Below the pieces are notes generated by a model. It ran no database searches. It was not told the DNA's origin and saw only the letters and a program-made list of their open reading frames with translations. DNA of 38,989 bases, from assembly GCA_038861545.1 (NCBI GenBank), contig JAWCCZ010000007.1, positions 1 through 38,989 of the forward strand. The letters run 5' to 3'. Positions 7,536-28,479 of this stretch are shown piece by piece. Origin of the DNA: Thermofilaceae archaeon (GTDB lineage: Archaea > Thermoproteota > Thermoprotei > Thermofilales > Thermofilaceae). The position numbers and the translations under genes were made by a program. Each line of letters begins with the position of its first letter. Position 1 is the stretch's first letter.

Positions 7536-7547
7536 CTCCTCGCTTGT

Positions 7548-10598: not shown

Positions 10599-10618
10599 AT
10601 TAGGGAAGTTTATTAACC

Positions 10619-11608
10619 TTAAAGTTTTAGGTTGAATCTATTTACTCCTTGCCTTAAATTCTGCATAATCTTCCCCGTAAGCTCCACGTTGCTCAGAGTG
10701 TACGCGAGGATAAGGGCTCCTACCGCTGGGGGGAATTCTGGTCTTATGATTTCAACTTGAAGCTGCTCCTTAAGTTTCTTTTCGAAAGGATCTAGTATTA
10801 CCCTTCCAGCTTTAAAAACCCCTCCTACCACTGCGACCTTGACCGGCTGTTCTTCAAGCATTCCAAGCCTTTTAACAAGCGCTATTACATGCAAGGCTAG
10901 CTGCTCGGCCGCTCTCTCAATAATTTTTAATGCTACTCTATCCCCCTGCATAGCTAGCCGAGTAACCGAGGGGGCTAGCCTAGCTACATCGCTGGTACTC
11001 ATTTTCTCCACATAGAGTTTCCTTAGAATCTCGTCGGGAGAGTCTATACTCAATGCCTTAAGTATTTCACCCATTAGAGCTGTAGGCTCACTCCTACCAT
11101 CGAAAGCCCGCAGAACTTCCCGCAGGGCCTCGATAGCTATATAGTAAGCGCTTCCCTCGTCACCCACGAGGTTGCCCCATCCTCCACATCTGGCATATTC
11201 TCCTCTACGATTCCTAGCACCGGCTACCGAACCTGTTCCCGCAATCACTATAACCCCCGGCTGTCCCATGGTAGCCCCAACCAGCGCAATCTCAGCGTCG
11301 TGTCTTACGTAAACCCTTTTGCCGGCTATCTTAGGAGCAGCTTTTTCCTCGAAAAAGCGGAAATCGTGTAAAGTGTCCATCCCCGCTAACCCCAGAACCA
11401 CCACGTCTGCTACTTCTAGCTTAGCGTCCGCTAAAGCTAGCCTAATGCTAGAGTTTATATTCTCAACTGCAACGTCTAGACCTACAGAATGATAGTTAGA
11501 GGGGCCGGCTTCGCCGATGCCTATGATTTCTCCCTCATTATCCGCAGCGACCGATAATGTTTTCGTAGCTCCTCCATCTACTCCAACGAAAACTCCCGCC
11601 ATAGGCAT
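10619..11608 (-). CDS. BadF/BadG/BcrA/BcrD ATPase family sugar kinase (N-acetylglucosamine kinase/hexokinase-like)
   Basis: GVDGGATKT, GPSN, GLAG.D, IAGTGS, GGWG..VGDEGSA. Confidence 0.88.
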   Translation of the reverse strand: MPMAGVFVGVDGGATKTLSVAADNEGEIIGIGEAGPSNYHSVGLDVAVENINSSIRLALADAKLEVADVVVLGLAGMDTLHDFRFFEEKAAPKIAGKRVYVRHDAEIALVGATMGQPGVIVIAGTGSVAGARNRRGEYARCGGWGNLVGDEGSAYYIAIEALREVLRAFDGRSEPTALMGEILKALSIDSPDEILRKLYVEKMSTSDVARLAPSVTRLAMQGDRVALKIIERAAEQLALHVIALVKRLGMLEEQPVKVAVVGGVFKAGRVILDPFEKKLKEQLQVEIIRPEFPPAVGALILAYTLSNVELTGKIMQNLRQGVNRFNLKL

Positions 11609-11715
11609 GTATGATTGTTCTTGCTATTAAATATTGGTAATCCCGCTGCATAACGCATGCCAGCGTATCCATATGTATGTACAGATTTTTATACTAAAAC
11701 TGTTAGCAACTTAAT

Positions 11716-12888
11716 GTGGAAGAACGTTTGAAATGGTTCGTAGAAGCCCGCTTCGGGATGTTTATCCACTGGGGCTTATACTCTCTGTTAAGCAGAGCCG
11801 AGTGGGTCATGAATTTAGAGAGCATACCCCGTGAAGAGTATGCGAAATACGCCTCAATGTTCAAAGCAGAGCGCTATTCTCCTGATGAGTGGGTTGAGTA
11901 CGCTAAAGAGGCTGGAATGAAGTACATGGTAGTGACCTCCCGCCACCACGATGGCTTCAGCTTATTCGATACCAAGTACTCAGACTTCAAGTCTACTAAA
12001 ACCCCCGCGGGCAGAGATTTGATAGGTGAATATATCGATGCATGCAGGAGAGCGGGACTTAAGGTTGGTATTTATTACTCTCTTCTCGATTGGAGATGGG
12101 ACGCGTACTGGAAGGGGCCCGACGACGCTAAAGAGTGGGAAAGATTCCTAGAGTACGTGCACGGACAGGTTGAAGAGTTGTGCAGCAACTATGGGCGGAT
12201 TGACATCCTCTGGTTCGACGGTGGCTGGCCTTATAAACCGGAGCACTGGAGAGCAGAAGAGCTTCTCAATAAAATTAGGAAGCTGCAGCCGCATGTAATA
12301 GTCAATAACAGGACCGGATTACCTGGGGATTTCGATACCCCTGAGCAACACGTACCATGGTGGGCTCCGCCTAGAAGACCTTGGGAAACCTGTATGACTA
12401 TGAACGATAGCTGGGGCTTTTTCGAAGGTGATAGGAACTGGAAAACACCGCGCCAAGTTATTTCAACTTTAGTAACAGTGGTCAGCATGGGCGGGAACCT
12501 TCTTCTCAATGTGGGGCCTCGAGGCGATGGCAGCTTCCCTCCGGAGGCTGTGGAACTATTATCGCATATAGGTGCCTGGATTAACCGTAATGGCGCGTCT
12601 ATCTACGGGGCTCGAGGAGCTCCTTTCACTACGACTGTGGGCCCTGTAACAGCAAAGGGTAATATAGCCTTCGTTCACGCGTTGAGGTGGCCCGGTAAAA
12701 GGATAACTGTCGCTGGGGTCGGAAACTCTGTTAACTCGGCTTACCTTTTAGCTATGGAGAAAGAGGTAAAATTCGCCCAAGAGGGAAACCGCGTACATAT
12801 CGAGGGGCTACCATCCCTCCCTCCAGATCCCTATGATAGTATAATTGTGTTAGAGCTGGACGGCGAACCTCATAGGCCCAGCGGGTAG
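11716..12888 (+). CDS. Alpha-L-fucosidase, GH29 (no signal peptide)
   Basis: WF..ARFGMFIHWG.YS, TSRHHDGF, LWFDG nucleophile motif, PWETCMTM..SWG, GGNLLLNVGP. Confidence 0.95.
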   Translation: MEERLKWFVEARFGMFIHWGLYSLLSRAEWVMNLESIPREEYAKYASMFKAERYSPDEWVEYAKEAGMKYMVVTSRHHDGFSLFDTKYSDFKSTKTPAGRDLIGEYIDACRRAGLKVGIYYSLLDWRWDAYWKGPDDAKEWERFLEYVHGQVEELCSNYGRIDILWFDGGWPYKPEHWRAEELLNKIRKLQPHVIVNNRTGLPGDFDTPEQHVPWWAPPRRPWETCMTMNDSWGFFEGDRNWKTPRQVISTLVTVVSMGGNLLLNVGPRGDGSFPPEAVELLSHIGAWINRNGASIYGARGAPFTTTVGPVTAKGNIAFVHALRWPGKRITVAGVGNSVNSAYLLAMEKEVKFAQEGNRVHIEGLPSLPPDPYDSIIVLELDGEPHRPSG

Positions 12889-12941
12889 AGAATCACGTTA
12901 TCCTAAATAACGAGTTTTTTAATTCAATTTCGGCGATACTA

Positions 12942-13976
12942 TTGAAAGTAGGTGTTATAGGGTGCGGATCCATAGGTAAAGTCCATATTCAGAAGTTCAA
13001 AGCAGTTGGCGCCGAAGTGGCAGCCGCCTGCGATATCGATGAGAATGAGCTTAAGTATGTGAAGAACACGTTCGGTGTAGAACATATTTATACAGACTAC
13101 CGCGATTTACTAGCCCGTGGGGATTTAGACGCCGTAGTGGTGGCTACACCGAATAACCTTCACTGCCGCATGACCATCGATGCGTTGAAAGAGGGTAAAC
13201 ATGTTCTTTGCGAGAAGCCTCCAGCGACGTCGGCTCATGATGTTTCGAAAATGTTCGAAGCCGCTAAGAGGCATGGAAGGGCTCTTTTAATCGGTTTAAC
13301 GATGCGTTTCCGTGGAGATAGCAGGGCATTGAAAAAGTACATCAATGAAGTCGGTGTCGGTGAACCATACTACGCAAGGGCAACTCTTCTCAGAAGGTCC
13401 GGTATCCCGGGTTTCGGTAGCTGGTTTACCCGGAAAATCGATGCAGGATCCGGTCCGCTTTATGATATAGGGGTCCACGCGCTGGATTTAACGATGTGGT
13501 TAATGGGTAACTTTGAAGCCCATGAAGTTTTCGCATCTACTTACGCGAAGTTCGGGCCGAAGGGCATCGGCCTCGGCACATGGGGTAAACCGGTTCCAGG
13601 AGGCCCTTTCGAAGTTGAAGATTTTGCCGTCGCTTACATAAAGATGAGAAATGGGGCCACTGTTTACCTCGAGGTAAGCTGGGCGAGCCACATAGCGAAC
13701 GATATGTTCAGCATCTTTATTTTAGGTGATAAGGCGGGTCTCGAGTTCCCAGGAGCTAGGGTTTACAGCTGGGAAGGCGTTTCAGTCGATAAGCAGCTAA
13801 AGTTTTCGGAGGAAGACCCTTACTTAGCTGAAGCGAGTCATTTCAAAGAAGTGGTCGAAAAAGGTATCGAGCCTGTAACAAAACCAAGCGAGATGATTAT
13901 GCTTCAGGCTACTCTTGAATCCGCAATTAAATCGGCTGCCGAGGGTAGACCGGTTAGGCTAGCCGAGGTTTTCTAA
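12942..13976 (+). CDS. Gfo/Idh/MocA family oxidoreductase
   Basis: IGCGSIG, ATPN..H, HVLCEKP, G.GPLYDIGVHALD. Confidence 0.92.
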   Translation: MKVGVIGCGSIGKVHIQKFKAVGAEVAAACDIDENELKYVKNTFGVEHIYTDYRDLLARGDLDAVVVATPNNLHCRMTIDALKEGKHVLCEKPPATSAHDVSKMFEAAKRHGRALLIGLTMRFRGDSRALKKYINEVGVGEPYYARATLLRRSGIPGFGSWFTRKIDAGSGPLYDIGVHALDLTMWLMGNFEAHEVFASTYAKFGPKGIGLGTWGKPVPGGPFEVEDFAVAYIKMRNGATVYLEVSWASHIANDMFSIFILGDKAGLEFPGARVYSWEGVSVDKQLKFSEEDPYLAEASHFKEVVEKGIEPVTKPSEMIMLQATLESAIKSAAEGRPVRLAEVF

Positions 13977-13988
13977 ACTATATATCGA

Positions 13989-15074
13989 CTATAACTCTAT
14001 TGTAAGGCCTTTTTTAACTGAGTGATTGAGAGCTAACAGGGTTTTTGTAATCTCGTATCCCCACCTCACTGATGGAAGCGGTTTTTCCCCCTTTTCTATG
14101 CATTCAGCTAGATGGTCGATTGAGCAGTGATAGTAGGGTCTAGATTCGCCTAAAACCTCTTTTCCAATCGATTTTACGCTTCCAGCACGGGTCACGGATA
14201 TTAACGGGACTGAGGCATCAACCATCGCCGAACCGCCGGTACAGTAAACCTGGATAGGTGGCATGTGAAGTCGCGTGAAAGTAGTATAATTTCCCATGAT
14301 AATCGCTAATCCCCCATCCCCGTATTCAAGCAATCCGACGAAGTTATCTTGCGCGGTCGGGTCGACCGGAACACTGGGCTTCAAATTATGGAAATAATAG
14401 ACACCTTTCCCATATGTTTCTCGGCTTATGGACTCAGTAACCTCTCTGGGCTGCAGTACAAACCTGCGCTTAATAGCTACTGTACCGAGTGCGGTTACAC
14501 GCACAGGCTTACCCAGTACAGCGTGAGCCCTAGCTACACCGTACACCGCCAGGTCGTAGAGCACACCCCCGCCAGCCTCTTCTCTAAAAAACCACTCAGA
14601 CCACATAGGCCCGCTATGGCCTGTATGCCAGATGGAGAAACAGTGTTGCCCCAGCTCGTGAACCACATCCTTTAAAGCTCTAAACGCTGGCAGTAGTAAA
14701 GCATCCGACGGCTCAGCTATTGCAATTACCCCGCTTTTCTCAACGCTCCTGACTACGGTTTCCGCATCTTCCAAGGATAAAGCCATAGGTTTCTGCACGA
14801 TGAAGTGTTTCCCCTCTTCCGCAGCCCTAATCGCCAAGGGTGCATGAGACTCATGGCTTGTTGTAACCACTATCGCCTCTACTTCTCGGTCGCGGAGGAA
14901 TGCGTCCGGGTCACTATACCAACGTGCAGCGTTCCATAGTTCCGCGCTCCGCTTTGCTCGCTCCGGAATGATGTCACAGACAGCGGTTAATCTATGTTGT
15001 TTAGCTATGTAAGGAAGGTAGTAATTGTTAGCGACATTTCCACAACCAATAACTCCGAAGCTTATCTTTTTCAC
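13989..15074 (-). CDS. Gfo/Idh/MocA family oxidoreductase
   Basis: IGCGNVA, VQKPMA, GGGVLYDLAVY. The GTG at 15074 is preferred over 15113 because it removes the overlap with the upstream gene and has a TATA-like TTATATA ~25 nt upstream. Confidence 0.88.
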   Translation of the reverse strand: MKKISFGVIGCGNVANNYYLPYIAKQHRLTAVCDIIPERAKRSAELWNAARWYSDPDAFLRDREVEAIVVTTSHESHAPLAIRAAEEGKHFIVQKPMALSLEDAETVVRSVEKSGVIAIAEPSDALLLPAFRALKDVVHELGQHCFSIWHTGHSGPMWSEWFFREEAGGGVLYDLAVYGVARAHAVLGKPVRVTALGTVAIKRRFVLQPREVTESISRETYGKGVYYFHNLKPSVPVDPTAQDNFVGLLEYGDGGLAIIMGNYTTFTRLHMPPIQVYCTGGSAMVDASVPLISVTRAGSVKSIGKEVLGESRPYYHCSIDHLAECIEKGEKPLPSVRWGYEITKTLLALNHSVKKGLTIEL

Positions 15075-15081
15075 AAAAAAT

Positions 15082-15822
15082 TTAAACACGGCGCGGTATA
15101 TAATCGTTAGCATTCACCCGTTTGCTAAGCTCTCCTAACCGCACCACTTTCTCTGCAACGATTTCACACTCAATCTCAGGGATTTCCAGCCGACAACCAT
15201 AGTCGGTTATTCTACGCGGCTTTCCGGATAAGACGGCGTAAGCTTCGTCCTCCTCTAGCAACGTCAAAATATATTTAGCTAGCTCATAGCTGAAAACCGC
15301 TTTTCCTTCTCTCACCGGGTAACAGTAAGGTAAAACTACTTCAAACAAGCTGGTTCTAAGAGAAATTTCAAGCGTCACTTCCATTTCGTTCAATACTGAA
15401 CCCTTTGCCACGCTTAGCGTAACGTAAACCGCACCATCTACACTGAACTGGCAAGGCCCTAAGTGCCTGGCTTCAGCTTTTAATTTTTCTGTCAGCATTT
15501 CCTTGGTTCTCCCCCTTGGGGGGTAATCCCCCATTATCCCGCCCACGACTACATACCTGAAGTTCCGTATATCGTCAACTGAAAGCGGGTCTTTAGCCTG
15601 AGGATCAAGCACTAGAAGCTCATCGGTAGCCGCGAGCTCCGAGATGCTTTCCTGGTACGCTTCAGTAAATGAAGAAACGCAGGCGAGCTCACCTTCATCT
15701 TTTAAGTTGGTTACTATAAGATTGCCGTTGGAGAGGCTAGCGGCGTGTTTATACTCTGTAAATACCCACGGAGTTAGAACTTCTTCTAGGTGTTCTATCA
15801 CTATTACAGCCATTACCGCCAC
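15082..15822 (-). CDS. SPOUT-class SAM-dependent methyltransferase, Sfm1/DUF431-like
   Basis: VIEHLE...W...EY, VLDPQA..PL, GGIMGDYPPRGRT, R.LG..QFSVDGAV, LPY.YP. Confidence 0.85.
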   Translation of the reverse strand: MAVMAVIVIEHLEEVLTPWVFTEYKHAASLSNGNLIVTNLKDEGELACVSSFTEAYQESISELAATDELLVLDPQAKDPLSVDDIRNFRYVVVGGIMGDYPPRGRTKEMLTEKLKAEARHLGPCQFSVDGAVYVTLSVAKGSVLNEMEVTLEISLRTSLFEVVLPYCYPVREGKAVFSYELAKYILTLLEEDEAYAVLSGKPRRITDYGCRLEIPEIECEIVAEKVVRLGELSKRVNANDYIPRRV

Positions 15823-15892: not shown

Positions 15893-16726
15893 TTGAGGTA
15901 CTCTGCCGAGGGAGCTTTCCCAGAAATATTCAAGCGGCGGGTTCGCGATGAAGCTAAGGCAGCAGTGATTGGCATTATTGGTTCAGAGGAAGCAGCAACG
16001 TGGACCGCGAGGAGGCTTAGGGCTATAGGCTATACAGTGACGGGGCTCTACGTAGTTGCTGCAACGAGTTCAGAAGTTGAGGAGTGTGTAAGATCCAAGC
16101 TTGAAAATGATGTTTTAGTAATGACTGGAGGTGTCGAGCCCGGCGTTGCACCGGCTTTCGAGGGAATTGCAGCAGCATTAGGTAAAAAATTGGTTCAAAA
16201 TGAAGAGGCTAAGAGACTGGTTGAGCAGCACTACTACATGGTTTACAGGGAGCAAGGTTACCCCGGCGATGAGTTTCAAATACCTGAAGAATTCGAAGTA
16301 CTATATACGTTACCAGATGAGGCCAGAGTTATACCTAATTCCAAGGGCTTAGTTCCTGGAATAATCTTAGAGGAAGGCGATAAAATCGTGGTTTGTCTGC
16401 CGGCTAATGTAACTGAGGTAAGCGACATGTTTGAGGACGACGTAGACCCATACGTGAGAAGCTTGCTGGGCGTCAGCTTGTCTGCAACTATAAACGTGGT
16501 AGCGAAAACGCGGGATCAAAAGCTGCTTAGTCTTATAGCAGAGGAAGTTGCCAGAAGCAATCCATGGATCTTTACACAAGTAAAGCAGAACATTTTTTCG
16601 AAAGAAGGCCGTGCGATCACCTTAACAGTTTTCGCTAGAGCGCCAGAGGAACTTAGCGAGAAGCTCGAAAACGCAATTAAAATCATTGAAGAAACTTTAC
16701 GAGTTAAAGGTATCGAAAAAGCATAG
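15893..16726 (+). CDS. CinA-like / molybdopterin-binding (MoCF) domain protein, divergent
   Basis: MTGG, IAAALGKKLV.NEEA, LP..A.VIPN..G.VPG..L...IVVCLP pattern; canonical GGLGPTxDD is degenerate. Confidence 0.65.
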   Translation: MRYSAEGAFPEIFKRRVRDEAKAAVIGIIGSEEAATWTARRLRAIGYTVTGLYVVAATSSEVEECVRSKLENDVLVMTGGVEPGVAPAFEGIAAALGKKLVQNEEAKRLVEQHYYMVYREQGYPGDEFQIPEEFEVLYTLPDEARVIPNSKGLVPGIILEEGDKIVVCLPANVTEVSDMFEDDVDPYVRSLLGVSLSATINVVAKTRDQKLLSLIAEEVARSNPWIFTQVKQNIFSKEGRAITLTVFARAPEELSEKLENAIKIIEETLRVKGIEKA

Positions 16727-17561
16727 CTATACTGGTACAGCTGCAGAGCTAGTAAACTCCGAATTAGTACAAAGCCAGTGAAAACCATCATTACCGTGGA
16801 CATGATAATTTGAGGAAATGCATGAATCTGTTAGCCCCAAAAGTCAAGCTAAGCTTTTCTTTTCACTATGTACTAGCACGAGGGATCTCTTAACTATACA
16901 TTAATTTCTTTAACCTTGACGCCGCGATACTTTTAGTAGCAGTACATTTAGCTTCACTTGTCTCATCTGTAAAGAGCGCTTTAGGCTGCATGTAAGCTCT
17001 TATTTCTGTTTCGCTACTTTCGATTTTTTCGAAACACTATAGGGGGTAAGATTGCGAGTCGATTACAACTCTATTAAACAAAGACTGTACATATTCAAAA
17101 CTTAGCGCACCGTATATTTTTGAATAGTTCCAGCTAGGTTCTTGGTTTAATTCCTTGTTCACCTTTAAGGTCTACATACGTAGTGATTTTCTCGGGATTA
17201 AAAAGGAAAATTTTAATTGAAGAACTGGTACTCTCCTCTCTGACGTTATTGGTAACATCTCAGAGGAACTTTCACCTCCTCGCAGAGCATCAGCTTGTAA
17301 CATAATCTCAGGTATGTAAAGTCTTACTATAGGAATGATTATGCGTTATACGTTTTCATATTTTATGATGATATACGGAGTTTTCTGCTGAGCTTGCTTG
17401 AGAGAACTTATGTCCTGGCTTTTCCGGCTTTGATGAGCTAGCTGACACAAAGGTGCAGATTCCACACACGTACTTAAAATGGTGGTAGTATATCGGGAAT
17501 CACTACTTGACACTGTAGGTTTGCAAAGGCAAAAGTTTATTCCCGTGATTTTAGGAGGCAT

Positions 17562-18200
17562 GTGCACCTGGTCTTCATAGGTCCTCCAGGTATAGGTAAG
17601 GGGACTTATGCAGCTGCCATATCGCAAAGATATGGGATTCCACATGTATCCACTGGCGATATCCTACGGGATGAGGTAAAGAAGGGTACTGAACTGGGTA
17701 AAAGGGTTAAAGAATACCTAGATAGGGGTGCTCTGGTACCCGATGAACTTATCATTGAGATAGTTAGAAAGAGGCTAAATCAGGAAGATTGTAAACACGG
17801 GTTTATCCTAGACGGTTTCCCGAGGACTATAAAGCAAGCAGAGGAACTAGATAAAATCACGAAAATAGACCTAGTGTTTAACTTCATTGCGCCTGAAGAA
17901 GTTATTATAGATCGAATCAGTGGTAGGAGGATTTGCAGGGTTTGCGGTGCGATTTACCATGTAAAATATATACCTCCGAAAGTTCCAGGCATATGTGATA
18001 AGTGTGGAGGCGAGCTCTACCAGAGAGATGACGATAAACCTGAGGTTGTAAGGAAAAGACTTGAAGTGTTCAAAGCTCAGTTTGAACCAATTATAAACTA
18101 TTATAGGGGTAAGAGGCTTTTGGTTGAGATTGATGCGAGTGAGCAAGCAGATATCGTAGTTCCAAAGGTCATATCGGTCTTAGAGAGCATAAGTGAATGA
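17562..18200 (+). CDS. adk: Adenylate kinase, bacterial-type long form with Zn-binding LID
   Basis: GPPGIGKGT, HVSTGDILR, GFILDGFPRT, LID CRVC...CDKC, QRDDD. Confidence 0.95.
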   Translation: MHLVFIGPPGIGKGTYAAAISQRYGIPHVSTGDILRDEVKKGTELGKRVKEYLDRGALVPDELIIEIVRKRLNQEDCKHGFILDGFPRTIKQAEELDKITKIDLVFNFIAPEEVIIDRISGRRICRVCGAIYHVKYIPPKVPGICDKCGGELYQRDDDKPEVVRKRLEVFKAQFEPIINYYRGKRLLVEIDASEQADIVVPKVISVLESISE

Positions 18201-18247
18201 AAACTATTAAAGCTAGGGACTAAAAAAAAAGAAGCAGGAGGACAGCA

Positions 18248-20173
18248 ATGGGAATGACTAGTTTTTCAGATACGGGTGTGACTCGGAGGACGCTTATACT
18301 AATCGCTCTTCTCATGGCGCTGTTGGTCCCCTCTAACCTGTACATAACGCTAGTTGGTGGCGCATTCGGCGTACTGCAAACTTATACTTTGGTATTGCTT
18401 TTCGTATACATTAGCAGGTACCTCGGTGCAGATCTTACGAAACGGGAAGTATACGCTCTTTTCTACGCATTATCGTACTCGACGATATACTTTAATGCGT
18501 ACCCGCTTCTATACAGGGCATACTTACGGGTTAGCGAGATTACTAACTCATTTATTATCGGAGGAGAACCTGTTTCATCACTTCTACCGGCATGGTTTGC
18601 TCCTCCAGCCGGCTCTCCCGTGTTCAAGATACGCACCCTTTTCCATCCAGACATGCTGTATCCGCTTGCTGTATCCTTAGTGTTCACGGCGCTTTGGCTT
18701 GTAGCGGAGCTCTCCATGATAATGCTCTCCTCTTTTCTCTTCGTGGAGGTTGAAGCCCTGCCTTACCCTTTAGCGCAGGTAGATTCCACGTATATTACAA
18801 TGATATCCGATAGACCTTCAGAATGGCTTAGGGGTTTCCTGCCCTCAGTCATCTTGACGTTGTTCCTCGCTACTCTAATTTACCTTCCAAGCATAGGAGC
18901 AATAGTAGGTCTTCCAGCCCCCCCAATTGGCTTTTATGATTTTTCCCAGCAGATAGCCGACTATTTACCGGGCGCGGCTCTTGGGATATACTTTTACCCT
19001 TGGGTTTTTCTTTGGGGTTTCATGATTCCATTCAACGTGGCTGCTACGGCTTTAGTGACGTCCGTAATCATATGGGTATTCCTTAACTCTTTATTCATAA
19101 CAACTCCTCTCCTAAGAGCGATTTTCCCCGATTGGGCTAAAGAGTACGAGAAGGGAATGAGCCACTGGTTAATCGTCGAAAGATCGACCTTGAGAATCTG
19201 GGCCCCTATCCAGCTCGGGGCTCAGCTAGCCTTAGCCTTAACATTAGTTGTCAGGTACCGTAGAGAAATAGCTAGAGCTTTGATCGCGCTGGCTAAGGGC
19301 GGCACAGCGACTGCTCGAGGCTATCCTTCTCTTAAAGTTCTTCTAGGAGCCTTTTTCTTAACTACTGGGTTGATTGTTCTTTTATACGACATGTTGCTTC
19401 CTGGCCTTCCTATTTACTATATTGCTCTAATCGGGATAGGCTTAGGGCTACTCATACCATTAACAAATGCCTACATGACTGGTACTACGGGCTCCGGCTT
19501 CGGTACACCTCCATATACTTGGCAATTCATTGTATACTCTCAAATTGGCAAGATCCCTCCATCCACTCAAGTGGCCTCTATACTATACTCGATGCCAACC
19601 ATAGGCAGCATGGCTGGCAGTGGGGCTCATGCAATAAAAGTAGCACATTTAGTAGGAGTTAAACCCACCGACTTAATCAAAGTTATTGTAATAGCCTTCT
19701 CAATAGGTACTATTGCCAACTTATTTGTAGTGGATGCGCTATGGAGACTTGCCCCCATACCTAGCATGGCTTACCCAGAGACTGTCAGGATAAGGGATAC
19801 CACAGTTTATGATTGTATTGTGGCATCCGGGTTGCTGCCTTTAAAACCTGACATAATATTGCCAGCGCTCGGATTGTTCCTAGTAATTTTCGCGACCCTT
19901 GAAACATTAAACGTTTTTCTACGCTTGCCGGTACCTATCTCAGGTGTAGCTTTGGGTTTAAGCTATCAGCCTGCTACCACTATAGTGTTGTTCCTCTCTT
20001 CACTCACTAGCTATGTAATAATTCCCAAGCTGCTTGGAAGGGAACGTTCGGCTAGATGGGGGGCTTTTAGAGGCGTGTTAGTATCAGGTGCATGGCTCGG
20101 TGATGCTATAGCTAACTCTATTTTTACGTTGTTGGGCTTAATAGGTAGGGCAGCTTGGACATGGCCGTGGTGA
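18248..20173 (+). CDS. OPT-superfamily-like polytopic membrane protein
   Basis: 641 aa, roughly 15-17 hydrophobic segments; G.T.R.L N-terminus, L...E motif, E.LPYPLA motif typical of OPT-like proteins. Confidence 0.7.
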   Translation: MGMTSFSDTGVTRRTLILIALLMALLVPSNLYITLVGGAFGVLQTYTLVLLFVYISRYLGADLTKREVYALFYALSYSTIYFNAYPLLYRAYLRVSEITNSFIIGGEPVSSLLPAWFAPPAGSPVFKIRTLFHPDMLYPLAVSLVFTALWLVAELSMIMLSSFLFVEVEALPYPLAQVDSTYITMISDRPSEWLRGFLPSVILTLFLATLIYLPSIGAIVGLPAPPIGFYDFSQQIADYLPGAALGIYFYPWVFLWGFMIPFNVAATALVTSVIIWVFLNSLFITTPLLRAIFPDWAKEYEKGMSHWLIVERSTLRIWAPIQLGAQLALALTLVVRYRREIARALIALAKGGTATARGYPSLKVLLGAFFLTTGLIVLLYDMLLPGLPIYYIALIGIGLGLLIPLTNAYMTGTTGSGFGTPPYTWQFIVYSQIGKIPPSTQVASILYSMPTIGSMAGSGAHAIKVAHLVGVKPTDLIKVIVIAFSIGTIANLFVVDALWRLAPIPSMAYPETVRIRDTTVYDCIVASGLLPLKPDIILPALGLFLVIFATLETLNVFLRLPVPISGVALGLSYQPATTIVLFLSSLTSYVIIPKLLGRERSARWGAFRGVLVSGAWLGDAIANSIFTLLGLIGRAAWTWPW

Positions 20174-20177
20174 GATC

Positions 20178-23100
20178 ATGAAGTGTAAAGCCTTATATGC
20201 TTTAGTGCTGCTTGCCGTATTGCTGTCAGTGCTAGCGATTCAAGCTCAACCGGTAAGCGTCGAAGAACTTGTACGCAAAGCTTTGAGATCTTACAACTAC
20301 ACAAGGGTTTTAGAATTAGCTGAAAAAATAGCTTCGCTTGGCTCAAGAGCACCAGGGTACTCTGGTTACGAGAGCACAGTCAATCTTATAATCGAGGAAG
20401 CTCGCTCTTTGAACCTCAGAGTATACGTTCAGAATTTCACAATCCTAGCTCCCGTGGAAAGGGAAACGTATGTTGAATTGCTTGAACCAGTGCGTTTGAA
20501 ACTTAAAGCGTATAGTCTCTGGCCCAACGGGGGTATAGCCTCCAGGGTAAATTTGCAGGAGGGTTACGCTGTTTACGTAGGGAAGGGAGAGCCAGATGAG
20601 TTCAACGGCAAACTCGTTAACGGAAGTATAGTGTTAATGGACTACGGAGGGAGCGGTGATAACTGGCTTCATGCTATGAGGTTTGGAGCTAAAGCAGTCA
20701 TATACTTAGCTACAAGTGAGGCGGAGAACGAGGCTTTAAAGAAGTTCGACCCAGTGATCCCCATACCATTTATACGCTTTTTCCTAGGTCCAACTGAGTC
20801 AGCGCAGCTGAAGGAGCTTCTGGAAAAGGGACCTTTGAAAATAAAAGTTTACACCGATATGGAGCTTAAGGAGGTTACAAGTCACAATGTGCTTGTAGAG
20901 GTGCCTGGAACCAAGGCACCAAATGAAATTATGCTTTTTACTGCACACTTCGATTCATGGTGTGTTGCTCCAAGTTTAGCTAATTCCACTGAAGAAGCTT
21001 TGTCAACAGCTACGCTAATAGAACTTATGCGCTACTTGGCGGAGAATAGGGCTAGCCGAACTGCATGGTTTCTTTATACTTCGGGTCACTGGAACGGGCT
21101 TACTGGTCCAAGGGAGTTTGTACGGAACTATATACTAGCTAGGCCAGAGCTCATAAAAGGCGACAGGCTAATATGGCAAGTAATGGGCTTAGATATTTCC
21201 GTAGATTTACCATTGATTTCTCTAATTTACGTTGGACATTTCTACCAGGTGGGAAGACCTTTTATAACTACAAAGCTGTACTGGGTTCAAGGTTTAGCTG
21301 CGAGTTATTCTCCGCTTGTATCCGAGTACCTCAGCGAGATAGGGATTCCAGAATCCTCAGCTTTAAGGGCTGTTATAAGCAACCTTTCGGGGCCGATAAG
21401 GTTCCAGGATCTAGCCCATGGCCCAGACTTTATGTGGTCGAGTACAATGAGCAAACCGTACGTTCTAGACACAGAACCCTTCACTATGGCTGGCATGGCA
21501 GCTTTCACCATGAGGACTTCTTTCAGCTACCGGCCGCTTGAGGGCGAACCGATTAATGACCTAGGCTACGTTAAGTCAAGGTTCAGGGATAGAGCAATTC
21601 CACAACTCGCTTCCACTGTTGCTTTAGCAGTAGGGTTGCTGAGTGAGCCTGAAGTTAGGATCACGAAGAGCATGATCACACCTACAAGACTACACTCTCT
21701 GCTTTACTGGGGTTTTATAGATTTAGAGGTTAAGGTACATCAATACAATATTACCAAGGGTTGGTACGATCCAGTTCCCAACGCTATCGTGAGGGTCTCT
21801 CGTTCGACTTCATACCCATTCGCTTGGATGTTCGCTAAAGCCGATTATAATGGAACCGCTCTTGTGTTTGGTATCACGCCTCAAGGGCTTAATACATGGT
21901 TTGCTGACGCCTACCTGCCTATTAATGAGAGCTGGATGGTGATGCCAGCTTGGGGGTTGAGAAGCGGTGGAGCTGTATCCGGTATCAACGCCTTAGTTCA
22001 AAAGATACACGTTATTGTACAGATGCAGCCACTGGAAGTCAGGGTTCTACTGGATTTACATAATCCTCGGATTATGAGGCGCACTGTAGAGGATCCGAGG
22101 TATTGGAGCGCAAACGTATGGGCGTGGGGCGGTCTGTGGTTCTCGCAGTTTGAAAGCGAAACAGGCATGGTACCACTTTATTATTATGCTACAGTTTTTG
22201 ACAGAAGGGGAACTGGACTAGCAGGAAGCGTACCAGTGAAGCAGTTGACGTTTAGGTTGGATGCGGGCGAGCGGTGGGCTCTTGGCGTGGTTCAAGATGG
22301 TAAGCAGGTACTCACGGCGTTCGATTATGCTTCAAGCCTACATACACTGGTTAGCGGAAGGTACTCTATAGTGAGCAGCAGAGAAGTGAGAAGGTTAAGC
22401 GGGGATCTGATGCTGGAATACTCTGGAACCCATTTAGCCGCCGCTCGAGAGGCTTTGCGAGAACTAAGGTATGGTGACGCGTACCGTAATGCCTTGGCCG
22501 CGTGGAGCTACGCTACAAGGGCTTACGCAGACGAGACGATGCCTCTCTATGATGAAAGTATAAAGTCTGCAGTAACAATGGTGCCTTTCCTAGCTATTGC
22601 CGCTTACTTCCTAGAGAGGCTTCTCTTAAAGGGAGAAGGCTTCAGAATGATCTTTAACCTAATATTGTTAGAAGTGATTATGTTCATCTTTTTTGCTCTG
22701 ATACACCCAGCTTTCTGGATAGTCCCCAGCACGCTTCTCTCAGCTTTAGGCATTGGTCTTCTAGTGTTAATGGGAGTAGTTCTATGGATCTTCTACCGTG
22801 AGGCGAGGGATATAGCATCGGAGGTAGCGGCTAAGTTCCTAGGTCGGCACGAAGTAGTATCGGAGAAAACAGCTGCTACTCTCATGGCAATGTCCCTATC
22901 AACTGAGAACATGCGGAAAAGACCCTTGAGGACTGTGCTGACAATACTTCCGTTAATTGTATTTTCAATGGCGTTAGTATCACTAGCTTCACTTTCACCC
23001 TACACGGCAGCCGTAGCCTCGCCAATTCGTGAGGCAAGGGCACCTTATTATGGCATCCTAGTTAAAAGGATGTTTGGTGTACTTAACGATGCCTTGGATT

Positions 23101-24650
23101 ATCCATCGTTGGAGATGTTAAAGGCTATAGTGGGCAATTGTGGCACTGTGAACCCACGTATCTGGTACTACCCTCCTTCAATCATTGGAATGGGTCCATA
23201 CGGATTACTCATCTCCGGTAACTCTACAGCTAGAGTAACAGCAGTTCTGGGTTTAACCCCCAGCGAAGCATCTATAATTTTATCTAAGGGGATTGTAGAG
23301 GGGTTTACTGAACCTTTCTTTAGCGAGGATCAGCTAGCTATAGTCCTTCCAGCTACCTTGGCAAGTTCTTTGGGCGTTGGAGTGGGAGATGAAGTTGAGC
23401 TCCAAGGTATAAAGCTGGTTGTCACAGGTATAATATCTGAAACTACTATGGGAGTTGTCAAGGATTTCGATGCAGGTAGTTTAGCGCCTATAGATCCTCT
23501 CTTTTACAGTCAGCTTAACGGATTCTCAGTTCAATTAGGAGGTGCTGTTACGCCGCAGCCATTGTCTTGGAGCAGGCTGGTGATTGTACCTAGCGGTATA
23601 GCTAGAAAGTTGGGCGGTTTTGTATCGAGCGCTAGCGTGATCCTAGATCAGAGCTTTCCTCTACAGAAGGCTGAAGAACTAGCTCGACGTTTAGCTTACT
23701 CAATAATGATGACATGTTATCTTGGTATTAAGGATGGCAGCGTGTTCGCATATACAAGGTTTCCGACGTATGCAGCAGTCGGTTGGGAAATGATGGTAAC
23801 TCCCTTTATCTTAACTGCACTCAGCATAGTAGTTTCATTGCTCGGCAGCGTCAAAGAAAGGTCCAGAGAGCTTTTCACCTATAGTAGTGTAGGGCTATCT
23901 CCCAACGGAGCTATGCTGATGTTTCTCACAGAATTTGCGGTTTATGGTTTTCTAGGAGCTACAATAGGGTACTTTGCGGGCTGGGCTTCGAGTAAAGTGT
24001 TCAGGATTTCCGGAGTCCTACCCCTAGAGTTTGTATTCAACTATGCATCTATCGCGATAACGCTGGTAATGGCGCTCGTTCTTCTTTCAACACTTGTAGC
24101 CTCTGCTTATCCAGCCTACCTAGCGTCCAAGATTATCACGCCGTCCCTTGAAAGAAGGTGGAAAGTAGCACGTGCTCCTAGGGGAAGTATATGGGAGCTT
24201 CCCCTCCCCTTCAGAGTCCCAACTGAACAGGAAGTGCAAGCTCTTCTACTTTACATTCAGGAGTACTATACGGGAGCCGGTTACGAGAAGAGGCTTTTTA
24301 AGGTTTCAGCAGAGCCTAAGGTTAATTTACCAGAAAAACGATTAACCTTTAATGTAAGACTTTACCCCTACGATACAAGCACAGAGCAGGAAGTTAACCT
24401 TTATTTTATGAAGGAGAAAGTTGGCGGCTGGAGAGCTGGAGTTAACTTAAAGCTACTAAAGGGTTTAGGAAACATTTGGACTGGAGCTTCGCAGTACGCC
24501 TTTTTAGATGATTTCAGAAAGCAGCTGCTCTTGTGGGGTACTCTCTCCTCTGCTGAGAGAGCAAGGTACTTTAAGATGGTGGAAGAGCAGTTAAGCAAAA
24601 ATATGATGAACTCAAGTAATATGAGCGGTGAACGCGAGCCTAAGAGCTGA
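20178..24650 (+). CDS. Large membrane protein: signal peptide + M28 peptidase-fold/PA ectodomain + MacB/FtsX-like permease
   Basis: Signal peptide; LGSRAPG, PA-like VYVGKG...GAKAVIY, TAHFDS; extra TM bundle; MacB TM1 motif ENMRKRPLRTVLT; MacB-like LASSLGVGVGDEV; FtsX motif SVKERSRELF...VGLSP...FLTE and YPAYLASKI. Confidence 0.82.
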   Translation: MKCKALYALVLLAVLLSVLAIQAQPVSVEELVRKALRSYNYTRVLELAEKIASLGSRAPGYSGYESTVNLIIEEARSLNLRVYVQNFTILAPVERETYVELLEPVRLKLKAYSLWPNGGIASRVNLQEGYAVYVGKGEPDEFNGKLVNGSIVLMDYGGSGDNWLHAMRFGAKAVIYLATSEAENEALKKFDPVIPIPFIRFFLGPTESAQLKELLEKGPLKIKVYTDMELKEVTSHNVLVEVPGTKAPNEIMLFTAHFDSWCVAPSLANSTEEALSTATLIELMRYLAENRASRTAWFLYTSGHWNGLTGPREFVRNYILARPELIKGDRLIWQVMGLDISVDLPLISLIYVGHFYQVGRPFITTKLYWVQGLAASYSPLVSEYLSEIGIPESSALRAVISNLSGPIRFQDLAHGPDFMWSSTMSKPYVLDTEPFTMAGMAAFTMRTSFSYRPLEGEPINDLGYVKSRFRDRAIPQLASTVALAVGLLSEPEVRITKSMITPTRLHSLLYWGFIDLEVKVHQYNITKGWYDPVPNAIVRVSRSTSYPFAWMFAKADYNGTALVFGITPQGLNTWFADAYLPINESWMVMPAWGLRSGGAVSGINALVQKIHVIVQMQPLEVRVLLDLHNPRIMRRTVEDPRYWSANVWAWGGLWFSQFESETGMVPLYYYATVFDRRGTGLAGSVPVKQLTFRLDAGERWALGVVQDGKQVLTAFDYASSLHTLVSGRYSIVSSREVRRLSGDLMLEYSGTHLAAAREALRELRYGDAYRNALAAWSYATRAYADETMPLYDESIKSAVTMVPFLAIAAYFLERLLLKGEGFRMIFNLILLEVIMFIFFALIHPAFWIVPSTLLSALGIGLLVLMGVVLWIFYREARDIASEVAAKFLGRHEVVSEKTAATLMAMSLSTENMRKRPLRTVLTILPLIVFSMALVSLASLSPYTAAVASPIREARAPYYGILVKRMFGVLNDALDYPSLEMLKAIVGNCGTVNPRIWYYPPSIIGMGPYGLLISGNSTARVTAVLGLTPSEASIILSKGIVEGFTEPFFSEDQLAIVLPATLASSLGVGVGDEVELQGIKLVVTGIISETTMGVVKDFDAGSLAPIDPLFYSQLNGFSVQLGGAVTPQPLSWSRLVIVPSGIARKLGGFVSSASVILDQSFPLQKAEELARRLAYSIMMTCYLGIKDGSVFAYTRFPTYAAVGWEMMVTPFILTALSIVVSLLGSVKERSRELFTYSSVGLSPNGAMLMFLTEFAVYGFLGATIGYFAGWASSKVFRISGVLPLEFVFNYASIAITLVMALVLLSTLVASAYPAYLASKIITPSLERRWKVARAPRGSIWELPLPFRVPTEQEVQALLLYIQEYYTGAGYEKRLFKVSAEPKVNLPEKRLTFNVRLYPYDTSTEQEVNLYFMKEKVGGWRAGVNLKLLKGLGNIWTGASQYAFLDDFRKQLLLWGTLSSAERARYFKMVEEQLSKNMMNSSNMSGEREPKS

Positions 24651-25712: not shown

Positions 25713-27122
25713 CTAACTTCTCTTAAGTTTAGCTTTTCGTGGATCTAAAGTATTCCAATCAATAAAGTATCCAAGTTTCTCGAGGATCTCGACAGCATCC
25801 CCCATGCTTATACCCGCATCCTCTAGATTTTTTACAGCCTCTTGGAGAGTTTTGCCGGAGAGATCGGGGAGCCTCGTCTTTAGGGTTTCTAAGTCGATGT
25901 CAAATGTTTTCCCTTTTTGCCGTGGCTCACCAAGAAAACGTTTTAATAGCGGGTATATATCGGCGCCCCTCAGCCTCCGTTTGAATAAAATAACCTCATG
26001 TGGCAGTTGCTTGAGCGATGAGCAAGCTAATTCTTCATCCACAGCTACTATCATCTTCACATCCTTTAGCTTGCGCAGCTTCTCTAGCTTTCTTTCCAGG
26101 TACTCTTTCGTCCAAAAACCCACTATCTCTATGTAAACTTTTAGTTCACCTGAAGTCACCGAGAAATCAGGAATGAAGATTTTGTTGTCTACTACTAAAG
26201 GTTCTGGCTCCCTCTCTACCTTCCAGCTAGGCGCTAGCCTAGATAAGCTCTTGTAAAACTCTTTCTCAACTTCACTGTCAAAAACCGGCTCCAGTTCTAG
26301 CATTTCGATAGCGAAAAGTTCTCTCTGGGAGCTGTCAAGCTGGAACAGTAACTTTCGATTGCGGCTCAGTATGTCGGCTCTAATTTCCCACTGGTCAGCA
26401 GACATTATGTAGGGTACCAGTTTCGCAAGCCTAATCCCATACCTCCTTACTTGCCGGAGGAGTGATGCAGGTCCATCGATCTGCAGTCGCACACTACTAT
26501 CTGGCGAGCTTTCCGCCATGTATAGGAGCCCCAGCATCTTAGTGTACCTTAACAGTTGCTTGGTGAGCAAGCCGCCGCTTTTAACCTTAAAGTCAAGCTG
26601 AGTCGCTTTAAAGAGTAGTGTTTGAACCATAGAAAGGTTAAACTTCCTTACCAGATCCTCTGGCGTCAGTGAAGGGGCTTTTACCAACACTTCCTCCTGG
26701 TACTTCTCCAATGCTAATTCTAAATCTTCAACCCTGCAACCAAGCCTTGCCGCTACTTTCTTTAACACGACTTTACGCTCTTCTTCCCCTACAACGACCC
26801 CAAAGTTCTTACCAACTTCCTCAAAGATTTCAAATCTGGCCCTCAAGGGATCTACTGGAAGCTTTACTGGTTCAAACATAGCGGCCCTAGCTGCAAGCGT
26901 CATCATCGCTTTCACAACCCTGAGATCTAGACCCGATTCTAGTGCTAGCTCTTCAAGCTCTTGGAGTGATATTTCAATTTCCTTTAAAGTTCTCCCTATA
27001 CTCTCAGCGAACTTCGCTAGGATCTCTGATGCTATGGCTAATGGCAGTCCCTCAGGCTCTAAGAGAAGCGGCTCTACTCGGCTTTTCTTAACACTAGCGA
27101 CTAGCAGGTTGGATGGAAGCAT
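25713..27122 (-). CDS. bax1: Bax1 endonuclease (DUF790 family)
   Basis: MLPSNLL start (ORF track starts at 27134); N.S..QTLLF, DGPASL...RRYG, FDS.VE, REPEPL...FIPDF...IEIVGFW; adjacent to xpb. Confidence 0.9.
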   Translation of the reverse strand: MLPSNLLVASVKKSRVEPLLLEPEGLPLAIASEILAKFAESIGRTLKEIEISLQELEELALESGLDLRVVKAMMTLAARAAMFEPVKLPVDPLRARFEIFEEVGKNFGVVVGEEERKVVLKKVAARLGCRVEDLELALEKYQEEVLVKAPSLTPEDLVRKFNLSMVQTLLFKATQLDFKVKSGGLLTKQLLRYTKMLGLLYMAESSPDSSVRLQIDGPASLLRQVRRYGIRLAKLVPYIMSADQWEIRADILSRNRKLLFQLDSSQRELFAIEMLELEPVFDSEVEKEFYKSLSRLAPSWKVEREPEPLVVDNKIFIPDFSVTSGELKVYIEIVGFWTKEYLERKLEKLRKLKDVKMIVAVDEELACSSLKQLPHEVILFKRRLRGADIYPLLKRFLGEPRQKGKTFDIDLETLKTRLPDLSGKTLQEAVKNLEDAGISMGDAVEILEKLGYFIDWNTLDPRKAKLKRS

Positions 27123-27123
27123 C

Positions 27124-28479
27124 TCAAGCACCAACCCCTTTTCTCCGCTTACTCGAAGCCTTTACCTCCTTTGTACCAGAAGTTACAACTTCATAGAGGA
27201 TCGCCCGTTTCCCCTCTTTTGGCCTAAGTATCCGGCCTAGTCTTTGCACAAATTCTCTTCCACTCCCGCTTCCACTCAATATAACTGCCACATTAGCATC
27301 TGGAACGTCTACTCCTTCCTCCAACACTTTGCTCGTGACGAGTGTGGTGATCCGTCCTTCCTTGAACATCGACATCAATGTTTTCCTTTCCTCATCTGGG
27401 GTCCTATACGTAATCTCCGGTACGAGGAAATGTGAGGATACTGCTCTAACAACATCGCTATGTTCAGTGAAGATCAAAACCTTATCCCCCCTATGCTTCG
27501 CTAGAATATCCCGGAGAATGTCCAGCTTCATTGAAGCATGCAATGCAATTCTTCTAGCCCTATACCATGAGAGGAGCGCCTCTCTTGCCTCCGGATCCTT
27601 TACGCTCAAAGCTGCCAGCTTCTCGAAATCCTTAGGGCCTCTCATTCTTAGTCTCTTTTTCCTGAGAAAAGCACGGTAGATTGACGTAAGTTTAGCATAC
27701 TCTTCTCTCTCACTTTCGGACATGTTTACATATAGCCTTACAATGTCGAACTCCGCTAACCACTTACCCGCCAGCTCCCTCGCATACTTTCTGTAAACGA
27801 CTGGACCAACTAGGTAGGGTAGGTCGAGATGAAGCTCGTCTTCGCGCTCCGGAGTCGCCGTTAAACCCATCCTGAATGGAGCCGCCGAGAACTCAGCGAT
27901 TTGCCTGTAACCGGGGCTTGGCAAATGGTGTACTTCATCAAGGATTATCAACTCGAACTTATTGCCGAGCCTTTCCACATTAATGTAGGCAGAGTCGTAA
28001 GTTGCAATCGTTACACAACTCAGCTCTCTTTCTCCCCCTCCATACCTAGACGGTGTTAACCCAAGATGACGTTTAACTACTTCCTCCCACTGGTCTATAA
28101 GCTCCAACGTGGGCACCACAATAAGAGCGGGCACGCCGAGTTCGGCTATTGCTGCTATAGCCACCAGAGTTTTCCCGGCGCCCGTCGGTAGAACTATAAC
28201 ACCCCTTCCCTCACGCTTCCAAGCCTCCAGAGCCTCTCTTTGGTAATCCCTTAGAAGGGGTAAATGCGCTTCCGGGAATCGACATACAGGTAATTGGAAC
28301 ACGTTGTCTTCGAACTGCACGCCTATGAACTTGAGTGTTTCAATGATCCAGCGGTACTGTATTGCTAGGCTCCTGTAACACTTCACCCTTGGATCGTACT
28401 TGAAGAACCCAGCCGCTAAAGGCGGAGGTAATCCTCCTCTTAGCAGTAAAGTGCCGGCGTCCCACTCTAACTTTAGCAT
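27124..28479 (-). CDS. xpb: XPB/Rad25-like SF2 helicase
   Basis: LRDYQ, LPTGAGKT, DEVHH, GLTATPER, EGVDVP, QRLGRILR; paired with bax1. Confidence 0.92.
   Translation of the reverse strand: MLKLEWDAGTLLLRGGLPPPLAAGFFKYDPRVKCYRSLAIQYRWIIETLKFIGVQFEDNVFQLPVCRFPEAHLPLLRDYQREALEAWKREGRGVIVLPTGAGKTLVAIAAIAELGVPALIVVPTLELIDQWEEVVKRHLGLTPSRYGGGERELSCVTIATYDSAYINVERLGNKFELIILDEVHHLPSPGYRQIAEFSAAPFRMGLTATPEREDELHLDLPYLVGPVVYRKYARELAGKWLAEFDIVRLYVNMSESEREEYAKLTSIYRAFLRKKRLRMRGPKDFEKLAALSVKDPEAREALLSWYRARRIALHASMKLDILRDILAKHRGDKVLIFTEHSDVVRAVSSHFLVPEITYRTPDEERKTLMSMFKEGRITTLVTSKVLEEGVDVPDANVAVILSGSGSGREFVQRLGRILRPKEGKRAILYEVVTSGTKEVKASSKRRKGVGA

Follow-up and report, generated by a model that had tools for sequence, protein, structure and literature searches.

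A conserved gene pair encoding an OPT-fold protein and a predicted pseudo-aminopeptidase–MacB/FtsX permease in a Thermofilaceae archaeon

A two-gene unit in a Thermofilaceae contig

We analyzed a 38,989-nucleotide (nt) stretch of DNA from a Thermofilaceae archaeon, referred to below as the window, which is one contig (C7) of a 1.63-Mb, 92%-complete genome whose nearest public relatives are labelled Thermofilaceae or Infirmifilum. The subject of this study is a pair of adjacent genes at positions 18248-24650: gene 1 (family P1, protein P0001) encodes a polytopic membrane protein of 641 amino acids (aa), and gene 2 (family P2, protein P0002) encodes a 1490-aa protein in which a peptidase-like ectodomain precedes a permease module. 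The results suggest that the two genes form a conserved pair within a larger putative machine, whose core is encoded elsewhere in the genome. A preliminary description of this DNA had reported two co-oriented genes 4 nt apart, and the open reading frames (ORFs) bear this out, the TGA stop codon of gene 1 ending at 20173 and the ATG of gene 2 beginning at 20178 after the spacer GATC. The features of the unit are listed below by position, strand, content and basis (TM, transmembrane).

18205-18212, +: TATA-like TATTAAAG, possible own promoter of gene 1 (sequence only)
18236-18242, +: AGGAGGA, possible ribosome-binding site of gene 1 (same basis)
18248-20173, +: gene 1 (P1), 641-aa polytopic OPT-fold membrane protein, assigned the role of channel or permease half of the cassette (ORF, model, fold match)
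20169-20173, +: GGTGA, Shine-Dalgarno-like motif for gene 2, overlapping the gene 1 stop codon (sequence)
20178-24650, +: gene 2 (P2), 1490 aa (ORF)
20178-20246, +: signal peptide or N-terminal anchor, aa 1-23 (hydrophobic core then A-Q-A, read from the translation)
20283-21677, +: predicted PA-domain and M28-fold pseudo-aminopeptidase ectodomain, aa ~36-500 (Pfam, PDB profile, residue census)
21678-22547, +: second extracellular region, aa ~501-727, and helical stalk, aa ~728-790 (paralogue conservation)
22548-22841, +: three extra TM helices, aa 791-888, with an invariant H843-P844 motif (model, invariant columns)
22866-24137, +: MacB/FtsX-type permease module, aa 897-1320 (Pfam, PDB profile, fold searches)
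24138-24650, +: cytoplasmic tail, aa 1321-1490, a family-specific alpha/beta domain, plus the stop codon (paralogue conservation, model)

Because the spacer is 4 nt long, GGTGA lies over the stop codon, and a TATA-like box and AGGAGG stand upstream of gene 1, both in the 47-nt gap between an adenylate kinase gene and gene 1, the pair has the appearance of a two-gene transcription unit, and the two genes are probably co-transcribed and translationally coupled. The adenylate kinase gene (17562-18200) was considered as an operon member and rejected, since gene 1 is preceded by a TATA-like box and a ribosome-binding site of its own. No Rfam family or tRNA was found in the window.

The ectodomain of gene 2 has the M28 fold with a remodelled pocket

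Pfam Peptidase_M28 matched gene 2 at 1.1e-6, covering the N-terminal part only. A profile built from 56 N-terminal halves of the gene 2 family matched the PA-containing M28 aminopeptidase 2ek8 in the PDB at 1.8e-36 and YwaD at 3.9e-24, as well as the transferrin receptor, GCPII and nicalin (~1e-12 to 1e-13), and the match to 2ek8 upholds the M28 fold with a PA insert that had been proposed earlier. The second extracellular region and the stalk had no Pfam match, though both are kept in the paralogues. The predicted extracellular residues, 1040 in all, contain nine N-x-S/T sequons, where shuffled sequences gave 4.1 +/- 1.8 (p ~0.016), in agreement with the earlier count of at least nine, and gene 1 contains none. 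In one metagenomic relative of gene 2 (P0251, 1612 aa), an F5/8 type C (NedA-like galactose-binding) domain is inserted in the M28-like ectodomain.

The pocket residues of P0002 are H257, D259, E273, H304, W305, D339 and T432. Across the 56 members, the general-base Glu is replaced by His in 51 (H304 in P0002), the Zn1 ligand Glu by Trp, Tyr or Phe in 46 (W305) and the Zn1 ligand His by Ser, Thr or Ala in 47 (T432). Of the Zn2 ligands, 26/56 members retain the His and 21/56 have Tyr instead, while the position of the bridging Asp holds Glu or Asp in 45/56 and the second Zn2 Asp is kept in 50/56. The canonical M28 catalytic set (zinc His, Asp, Glu, Asp and His, plus the general-base Glu) is present in 0/6 paralogues of this genome, and H257, E273, D339 and H304 are kept in 6/6 members of the window's orthologue group. 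Judged by these residues, the M28-like domain is not a working di-zinc peptidase, and its pocket has been remodelled and then conserved like a binding site, which is not random decay. We regard the ectodomain as a predicted binding module and not as a peptidase because almost none of the 56 members retains the catalytic Glu and the Zn1 ligands, and the 'process' step of the capture/process-and-import system envisaged in the preliminary description lacks support on the same ground.

The inner half of gene 2 is a predicted type VII ABC permease with a family-specific tail

The permease module consists, in order, of an amphipathic N-helix and TM1 (aa 897-936), a Porter/Sabre-like extracytoplasmic domain (aa 938-1201), and TM2, a coupling helix and TM3-4 (aa 1204-1320). 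Pfam FtsX (PF02687) matched gene 2 at 3.2e-13 (50.2 bits; cut-off 25.5), and MacB_PCD at 2.2e-4 with 22 bits, under its cut-off of 27. The sequence profile of the inner half matched MacB in the PDB at 2.8e-24, and also YtrF and LolC/E/F, while fold searches returned LolCDE, MacB, HrtBA, YtrEF, YbbAP, BceAB and FtsX (Z 12-15). The extracytoplasmic domain aligned with the MacB periplasmic domain 3ftj (Z 13.0, root-mean-square deviation 4.1, 182 aa), and its fold also matched the LolE, LolC and YknZ domains. The coupling helix reads ER.RE..VG..P, in which E1227, R1228, R1230, G1239 and P1242 are invariant in the six paralogues. In the model of residues 790-1490 (pLDDT 87.5), the extra TM helices span 2-28, 32-53 and 63-99 in model numbering, the N-terminal helix 108-125 and the coupling helix, between TM2 and TM3, 440-448; in permeases of this kind, these two helices dock the ATPase, and the coupling helix is intact here. 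By profile and fold matches, the C-terminal half of gene 2 is thus assigned as an ATP-binding cassette (ABC) permease of type VII and of the MacB/FtsX kind, as had been predicted, and the extra TM helices and the ~170-aa tail noted at the time are seen in the model.

The tail is modelled as beta-alpha-beta4-alpha-alpha (pLDDT ~90) and is conserved in all six paralogues. Its fold resembles TBP-like/helix-grip domains, but at Z 7.3-8.5 the likeness is too middling for a function to be assigned. A search of the language-model atlas gave no usable match for the tail. In a census, no fewer than 466 sequence clusters carried the domain, in every case at the very C-terminus of proteins of ~1500 aa, and it is a hallmark of the family.

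Gene 1 is predicted to be a divergent OPT-fold protein

P0001 had no match in Pfam (at E <= 1) or NCBIfam. In an alignment of P0001 and 51 relatives, 16/52 members matched Pfam OPT (best 1.2e-17) and no member matched any other family; the gene 1 protein of the paralogous locus C1a scored 35 bits with OPT. The AlphaFold model of gene 1 (pLDDT 91.2, pTM 0.91) was compared with the PDB by Foldseek, which revealed barley Yellow Stripe 1 (YS1; 7wst/7wsr) at E 9e-10, with a TM-score of 0.64-0.68 over ~670 columns, and these structures were the sole significant matches, all others lying at E > 0.01. The P1 profile had no match among PDB sequences, so that YS1 was found by fold search alone. In the ESM Atlas, the nearest shapes were archaeal clusters partly annotated OPT (TM-score 0.89), and a further neighbour was a Poribacteria cluster with DUF6785 and DUF6784 (0.81). 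The YS1 fold match and the OPT matches of the relatives thus support the earlier view of gene 1 as an OPT-like polytopic protein. Since P0001 itself has no Pfam OPT match while 16/52 relatives do, gene 1 is, on the strength of its model and these relatives, best described as a divergent OPT-fold protein of a sister clade to the curated OPT family (PF03169), not as a member of the curated model. DUF6785, which the preliminary description had listed among the domains to check, does not apply to gene 1: neither DUF6785 (PF20581) nor DUF6784 (PF20580) matched P0001. The two models match a separate, third polytopic family, designated X, at loci C2, C1c and C6 of this genome. X has no copy in the window. 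It is distantly related to P1, whose profile also picks up two X proteins.

The two gene families are kept together across archaea and bacteria

The genome holds six full-length gene 2 paralogues (26-39% identity) and six gene 1 paralogues, each gene 2 adjoining a gene 1, and the six pairs total ~38 kb of the 1.63 Mb, a noticeable part of so small a genome. P1 precedes P2 in the window and at C1a, the two genes are divergent at C1b, and P2 precedes P1 at C2, C1c and C6, where an X gene is additionally present. We further surveyed full-length relatives of gene 2 at 80 loci from public genomes. Archaeal carriers include Thermofilaceae, Brockarchaeota, Bathyarchaeia, Desulfurococcaceae and others, and bacterial carriers are Armatimonadota, Poribacteria and Brocadiaceae. 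Within 3 kb of P2, 45/48 archaeal loci carry P1 or X, as do 15/24 bacterial loci; among loci whose flanks are complete, the figures are 31/32 and 12/15. The pairwise identity matrices of P1 and P2 at 46 loci were strongly correlated (Mantel r = 0.88; 0/2000 permutations as high), a type of test that common ancestry inflates. Independently of that inflation, the nearest relatives agree between P1 and P2 paralogue by paralogue, so the pairs appear to be inherited as units. Co-localisation of the two families across genomes, on which the preliminary description had staked its proposal, is thus found in all six loci here and in most archaeal loci, together with co-diversification, and comparative sequence evidence indicates that genes 1 and 2 are a genuine, conserved functional pair.

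One protein (P0263, 2146 aa) consists of a complete P2 fused to a complete DUF6785/6784 protein; because it is a single metagenomic record whose DNA was not read, we treat it as a lead only. No longer protein with a P1-like part was found, in a search that is itself weak evidence. A complex prediction of P1 with the TM pieces of P2 (aa 790-940 and 1200-1334) scored 0.01, and, run as it was without controls, it counts neither way on binding. Physical contact between P1 and P2 is put forward as a prediction.

Candidate motor and core genes are encoded away from the cassettes

No ABC ATPase was found within 13 kb of any of the six loci, and the genome holds 13 FtsX genes versus only three LolD-like ATPases. 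The C2 ATPase adjoins an ordinary 390-aa FtsX gene, as in a canonical MacB pair. The candidate core genes, with their positions on other contigs of the genome, are as follows.

C3:20764-21492: ATPase A, next to mini-FtsX
C3:19994-20710: mini-FtsX, 238 aa, without an ectodomain
C5:60848-61594: ATPase B, without an FtsX neighbour
C5:2653-3618: 320-aa protein, homologue of a bacterial operon member
C4:224641-225048: PqqD-like (PqqD/RRE-like) protein

Both ATPases have intact Walker A/B, signature and H-loop motifs. The grouping of these genes is suggested by operons of Poribacteria and Armatimonadota, which begin with P2 and P1 (present once or twice) and continue with a protein of 310-366 aa that has no Pfam match, a PqqD-like gene, mini-FtsX (in Armatimonadota) and an ATPase. 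The ATPases of the bacterial operons are 66-71% identical to ATPase A and 62-72% to ATPase B, and only 44-46% to the C2 ATPase. A phyletic survey of 120 genomes of the class revealed strong P2 matches in ~29 genomes, in multiple copies and with up to at least nine matches per genome, and the PqqD-like protein in 27 genomes, the 320-aa protein in 27 and strong mini-FtsX matches in 27 (51-80% identity), while ATPase B orthologues showed 75-93% identity. The PqqD-like protein, the 320-aa protein, mini-FtsX and ATPase B are single-copy and occur in the same ~27 genomes and in the families that carry P2; these small core genes and P2 are absent from the remaining families and from seven sister-genus genomes that are complete or 95-99% complete. 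The system thus presents itself as a slowly evolving single-copy core beside many fast-evolving cassettes, a pattern typical of uptake systems, which leans towards such a role.

The cassettes, the two ATPases, mini-FtsX, the PqqD-like protein and the 320-aa protein are very probably parts of the same machine. It is also likely that the motor is encoded in trans, by two dedicated MacB/LolD-type ATPases and mini-FtsX away from the cassettes, and one motor may be common to all cassettes. What the preliminary description missed is that, by co-occurrence and operon linkage in bacteria, the machine exceeds two genes, its predicted core being encoded elsewhere.

Two sets of observations adjoin this survey. 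In genus g14 (G024-G027) the system is possibly partial: one genome (G025) has the mini-FtsX and ATPase A pair with no P2 found, and another (G024) lacks all the small core genes and has one P2 match, which contains a stop codon. The genome of the window also encodes five further large FtsX-type permeases (714-1090 aa) without an M28 ectodomain or an adjacent ATPase, which may use the same motor; two of the five flank the C1c cassette. Their positions are:

C1:389820-393092: large FtsX-type permease
C1:412737-415562: large FtsX-type permease
C1:255369-257513: large FtsX-type permease
C4:120563-123589: large FtsX-type permease
C1:136861 region: large FtsX-type permease

Comparison with characterized systems

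Among characterized systems, the Escherichia coli lipoprotein-release complex LolCDE resembles the present one in its MacB-type permease fold, with N-helix, TM1, extracytoplasmic domain, TM2-4 and coupling helix, in its separate LolD-like ATPase, and in the presence of a second FtsX-type permease gene, mini-FtsX recalling the LolC/LolE heterodimer. By that analogy, the co-occurrence of mini-FtsX suggests a P2/mini-FtsX heterodimer, the alternative being a dimer of P2 alone. Unlike the Lol permeases, however, gene 2 carries a pseudo-peptidase ectodomain of 800 aa, a cytoplasmic tail of 170 aa and three extra TM helices, no ectodomain is present in the second permease, and there are two distinct ATPases, a PqqD-like protein and, in archaea, a near-obligatory OPT-fold partner; moreover, the present system occurs in archaea, which have neither an outer membrane nor a Lol pathway. 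FtsEX-EnvC, FtsEX-PcsB and YbbAP-TesA share with it the expected ATP-driven motion of an extracytoplasmic domain and a hydrolase-like module held outside, whereas here that module is fused to the permease and predicted to be inactive, and the partner has a transporter fold and is not a cell-wall or lipid hydrolase.

Gene 1 has the overall fold of OPT proteins (barley Yellow Stripe 1, fungal and plant oligopeptide transporters), but P0001 falls below Pfam detection with ~15% identity to YS1 and is always encoded with a MacB-type giant, a partner unknown for OPT proteins. The transferrin receptor and nicalin offer a precedent for the PA and M28 fold serving as a non-peptidase binding scaffold. 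In contrast to these and GCPII-like proteins, gene 2 is prokaryotic and fused to an ABC permease, and its pocket has His in place of the catalytic Glu and an aromatic residue in place of the zinc-binding Glu. By analogy only, TonB-dependent and Sus-like uptake likewise combines many fast-evolving receptor-channel cassettes with one conserved single-copy energizing module; there is no homology, ATP would replace the proton-motive force, the archaea have no outer membrane, and the sharing of a motor is here a prediction.

Proposed mechanism and alternatives

We propose, as a reading that we hold to be evenly poised, that the pair may be one of six paralogous 'receptor + channel' cassettes belonging to a conserved machine of several subunits and of the type VII ABC kind, with nutrient uptake as the favoured role. 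Gene 2 would act as the receptor-transducer, its catalytically dead but conserved aminopeptidase-like pocket standing on a stalk and fused to a MacB-type permease, and gene 1 would be the OPT-fold permease that travels with it; the motor would comprise the two MacB/LolD-type ATPases and mini-FtsX, accompanied by the single-copy PqqD/RRE-like and 320-aa cytoplasmic proteins. In this scheme, an extracellular ligand would be bound by the ectodomain, ATP binding and hydrolysis at the trans-encoded ATPases would move the MacB stalk and the ectodomain (mechanotransmission), the ligand would be passed to the OPT-fold partner and carried across the membrane, and separate cassettes would serve separate nutrients. 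A more specific form, a hybrid transporter class in which a type VII ABC mechanotransducer energizes or gates an OPT-fold channel and so supports ATP-driven, receptor-mediated uptake through many interchangeable cassettes that share one motor, is tentative and rather doubtful; its cargo may be glycans or glycopeptides.

Nutrient import by the cassettes, as predicted from these comparisons, we rate slightly short of even, because the indications lean both ways: known OPT members are importers, the cassette/core pattern fits uptake, the setting is catabolic and one relative (P0251) has a galactose-binding-like insert, versus mixed neighbours, an RRE-like protein and the outward habit of type VII systems. 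The window is carbohydrate-leaning, with a GH29 fucosidase, two GFO/IDH/MocA oxidoreductases, a BadF-type sugar-kinase-like ATPase, an FGGY kinase, a major facilitator superfamily (MFS) sugar transporter and a URO-D-like protein. Among 139 flanking ORFs from other genomes we counted URO-D (7), GFO_IDH_MocA (4-6), sulfatase (3), GHL10 (3) and MR_MLE (3), with no peptidase among the top 25 families, all being raw counts without a background control. Besides that limit on the tally, several points weigh against our reading. The flanks of the other five cassettes are mixed (MttB and RuBisCO, URO-D, a xylose-isomerase-like TIM barrel, MFS). We know of no type VII ABC system, among those characterized, by which a solute is imported through the membrane; their actions are extraction, expulsion or the transmission of force. 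PqqD/RRE-like proteins and cytoplasmic adaptors are better known from pathways in which peptides are matured and exported. Nine of the 24 bacterial loci, mostly of Fimbriimonadales, have neither P1 nor X within 3 kb, and the P0263 fusion, a single metagenomic record, might stem from a lost stop codon. Contact between P1 and P2, and binding of P2 to the trans-encoded ATPases or mini-FtsX, are predicted features of the model. Finally, adenylate kinase is syntenic with the pair in six orthologous loci, yet the whole region is likewise syntenic, so this order reflects general regional conservation and not function.

The machinery could instead serve export or surface assembly, which we consider unlikely: the RRE-like adaptor would bind a cytoplasmic peptide or protein, the OPT-fold protein would pass it out, the dead pocket would grip its N-terminus and the ATP-driven stalk would pull or release it. 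In pathways of maturation and export, RRE domains bind the leaders of peptides, the PqqD-like gene lies within the bacterial operons and co-occurs with P2, every characterized type VII ABC system works outward or within the envelope, and an aminopeptidase-like pocket, conserved although inactive, is apt for a free N-terminus. However, known OPT proteins import, no cargo or precursor gene recurs beside the cassettes, the neighbours are catabolic and not biosynthetic, and one step of leader recognition is hard to square with six or more divergent cassettes and only one RRE. To a sensor or regulator in the manner of FtsEX-EnvC or BceAB-BceS, in which the MacB module would transmit a conformational signal, the ectodomain would control an outside partner or report ligand occupancy to the OPT-fold protein and the cytoplasmic tail, and no cargo would pass through P2, we give little credence. 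The heavy cost of 6-9 copies per small genome for sensing only, the nearly obligatory transporter-fold partner in archaea and the lack of any consistently adjacent kinase, transcription factor or hydrolase all speak against it, even though FtsX-type systems often regulate instead of transporting (e.g., PMC10214136 and PMC12646458), the conserved cytoplasmic tail is of a ligand-binding or membrane-binding fold type, and the inactivity of the peptidase-like domain is shared with receptor-type M28 relatives such as the transferrin receptor and nicalin.

That genes 1 and 2 are coincidental neighbours, an ordinary proton-coupled OPT importer next to a separate ABC permease with an unrelated envelope task, seems quite improbable. 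Their adjacency outlasts changes of order and orientation in the six loci here and the 45/48 archaeal loci, extends across archaea and several bacterial phyla and is accompanied by co-diversification, the 4-nt spacer with its overlapping ribosome-binding site and one fused protein (P0263); on the other side, a physical link between the two proteins is a prediction, and in some bacterial lineages neither P1 nor X adjoins P2. It is very improbable that the M28 domain is an active exopeptidase trimming peptides or glycopeptides before import, despite its clear homology to active PA-containing M28 aminopeptidases and the retention of H257, E273 and D339, one of the two zinc sites, in 6/6 window orthologues. 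The general-base Glu is His in 51/56 members, the ligands of the other zinc site are replaced in 46/56 and 47/56, the first His is Tyr in 21/56 and none of the six paralogues has the canonical set, and an active peptidase function was rejected on this residue census.

Neighbouring features

Several features outside the pair were recorded. The carbohydrate-leaning block of the window covers 4518-15113 and 31793-33295, its fucosidase and oxidoreductases being syntenic in loci L029 and L030. URO-D-like genes recur beside cassettes in this genome and in others (7/139 flanking ORFs), and homologues of an MttB-family methyltransferase and of the RuBisCO large subunit are encoded on the strand of the C1a cassette, immediately downstream of it (C1:466193-469135, -). 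An encapsulin-like ORF at 2186-3244 (+) combines a rubrerythrin-like N-terminal part with a Linocin_M18 shell domain and looks cargo-fused; a separate rubrerythrin is encoded at 9552-10037. At 25713-28479 (-), a gene for an XPB helicase with a damage-recognition domain and a DUF790 (Bax1-type) gene share 11 nt, forming an archaeal XPB-Bax1 pair, and the DUF790 protein has a weak PASTA-like C-terminal match under the Pfam cut-off. The 835 nt at 16727-17561 contain no plus-strand ORF of at least 100 aa, have a lower G+C content (0.42 over 16001-18000) and gave no Rfam or tRNA match.

Significance

In the literature on DUF6785/DUF6784 and on FtsX/type VII ABC proteins with OPT, M28 or PA, we found no published description of the system, which agrees with the earlier statement that no functional characterization was known. 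Database names for gene 2 proteins are 'FtsX-like permease family protein', 'M28 family peptidase' and 'ABC-type antimicrobial peptide transport system permease'. In bacterial envelopes, type VII ABC systems are known to extract, to expel and to transmit force; to our knowledge, none has a secondary-transporter-fold partner and none has been studied in archaea.

The system is carried by archaea of hot springs, by symbionts of sponges, and by soil and water bacteria that are known to degrade polymers. If the cassettes are an uptake route, they would account for the acquisition of complex substrates and add a new way of coupling ATP to transport. If the shared motor is real, loss of one core gene should disable all cassettes together. 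The hybrid transporter, if true, would be a functional counterpart of TonB/Sus in archaea, PVC bacteria, Poribacteria and Armatimonadota without TonB/Sus.

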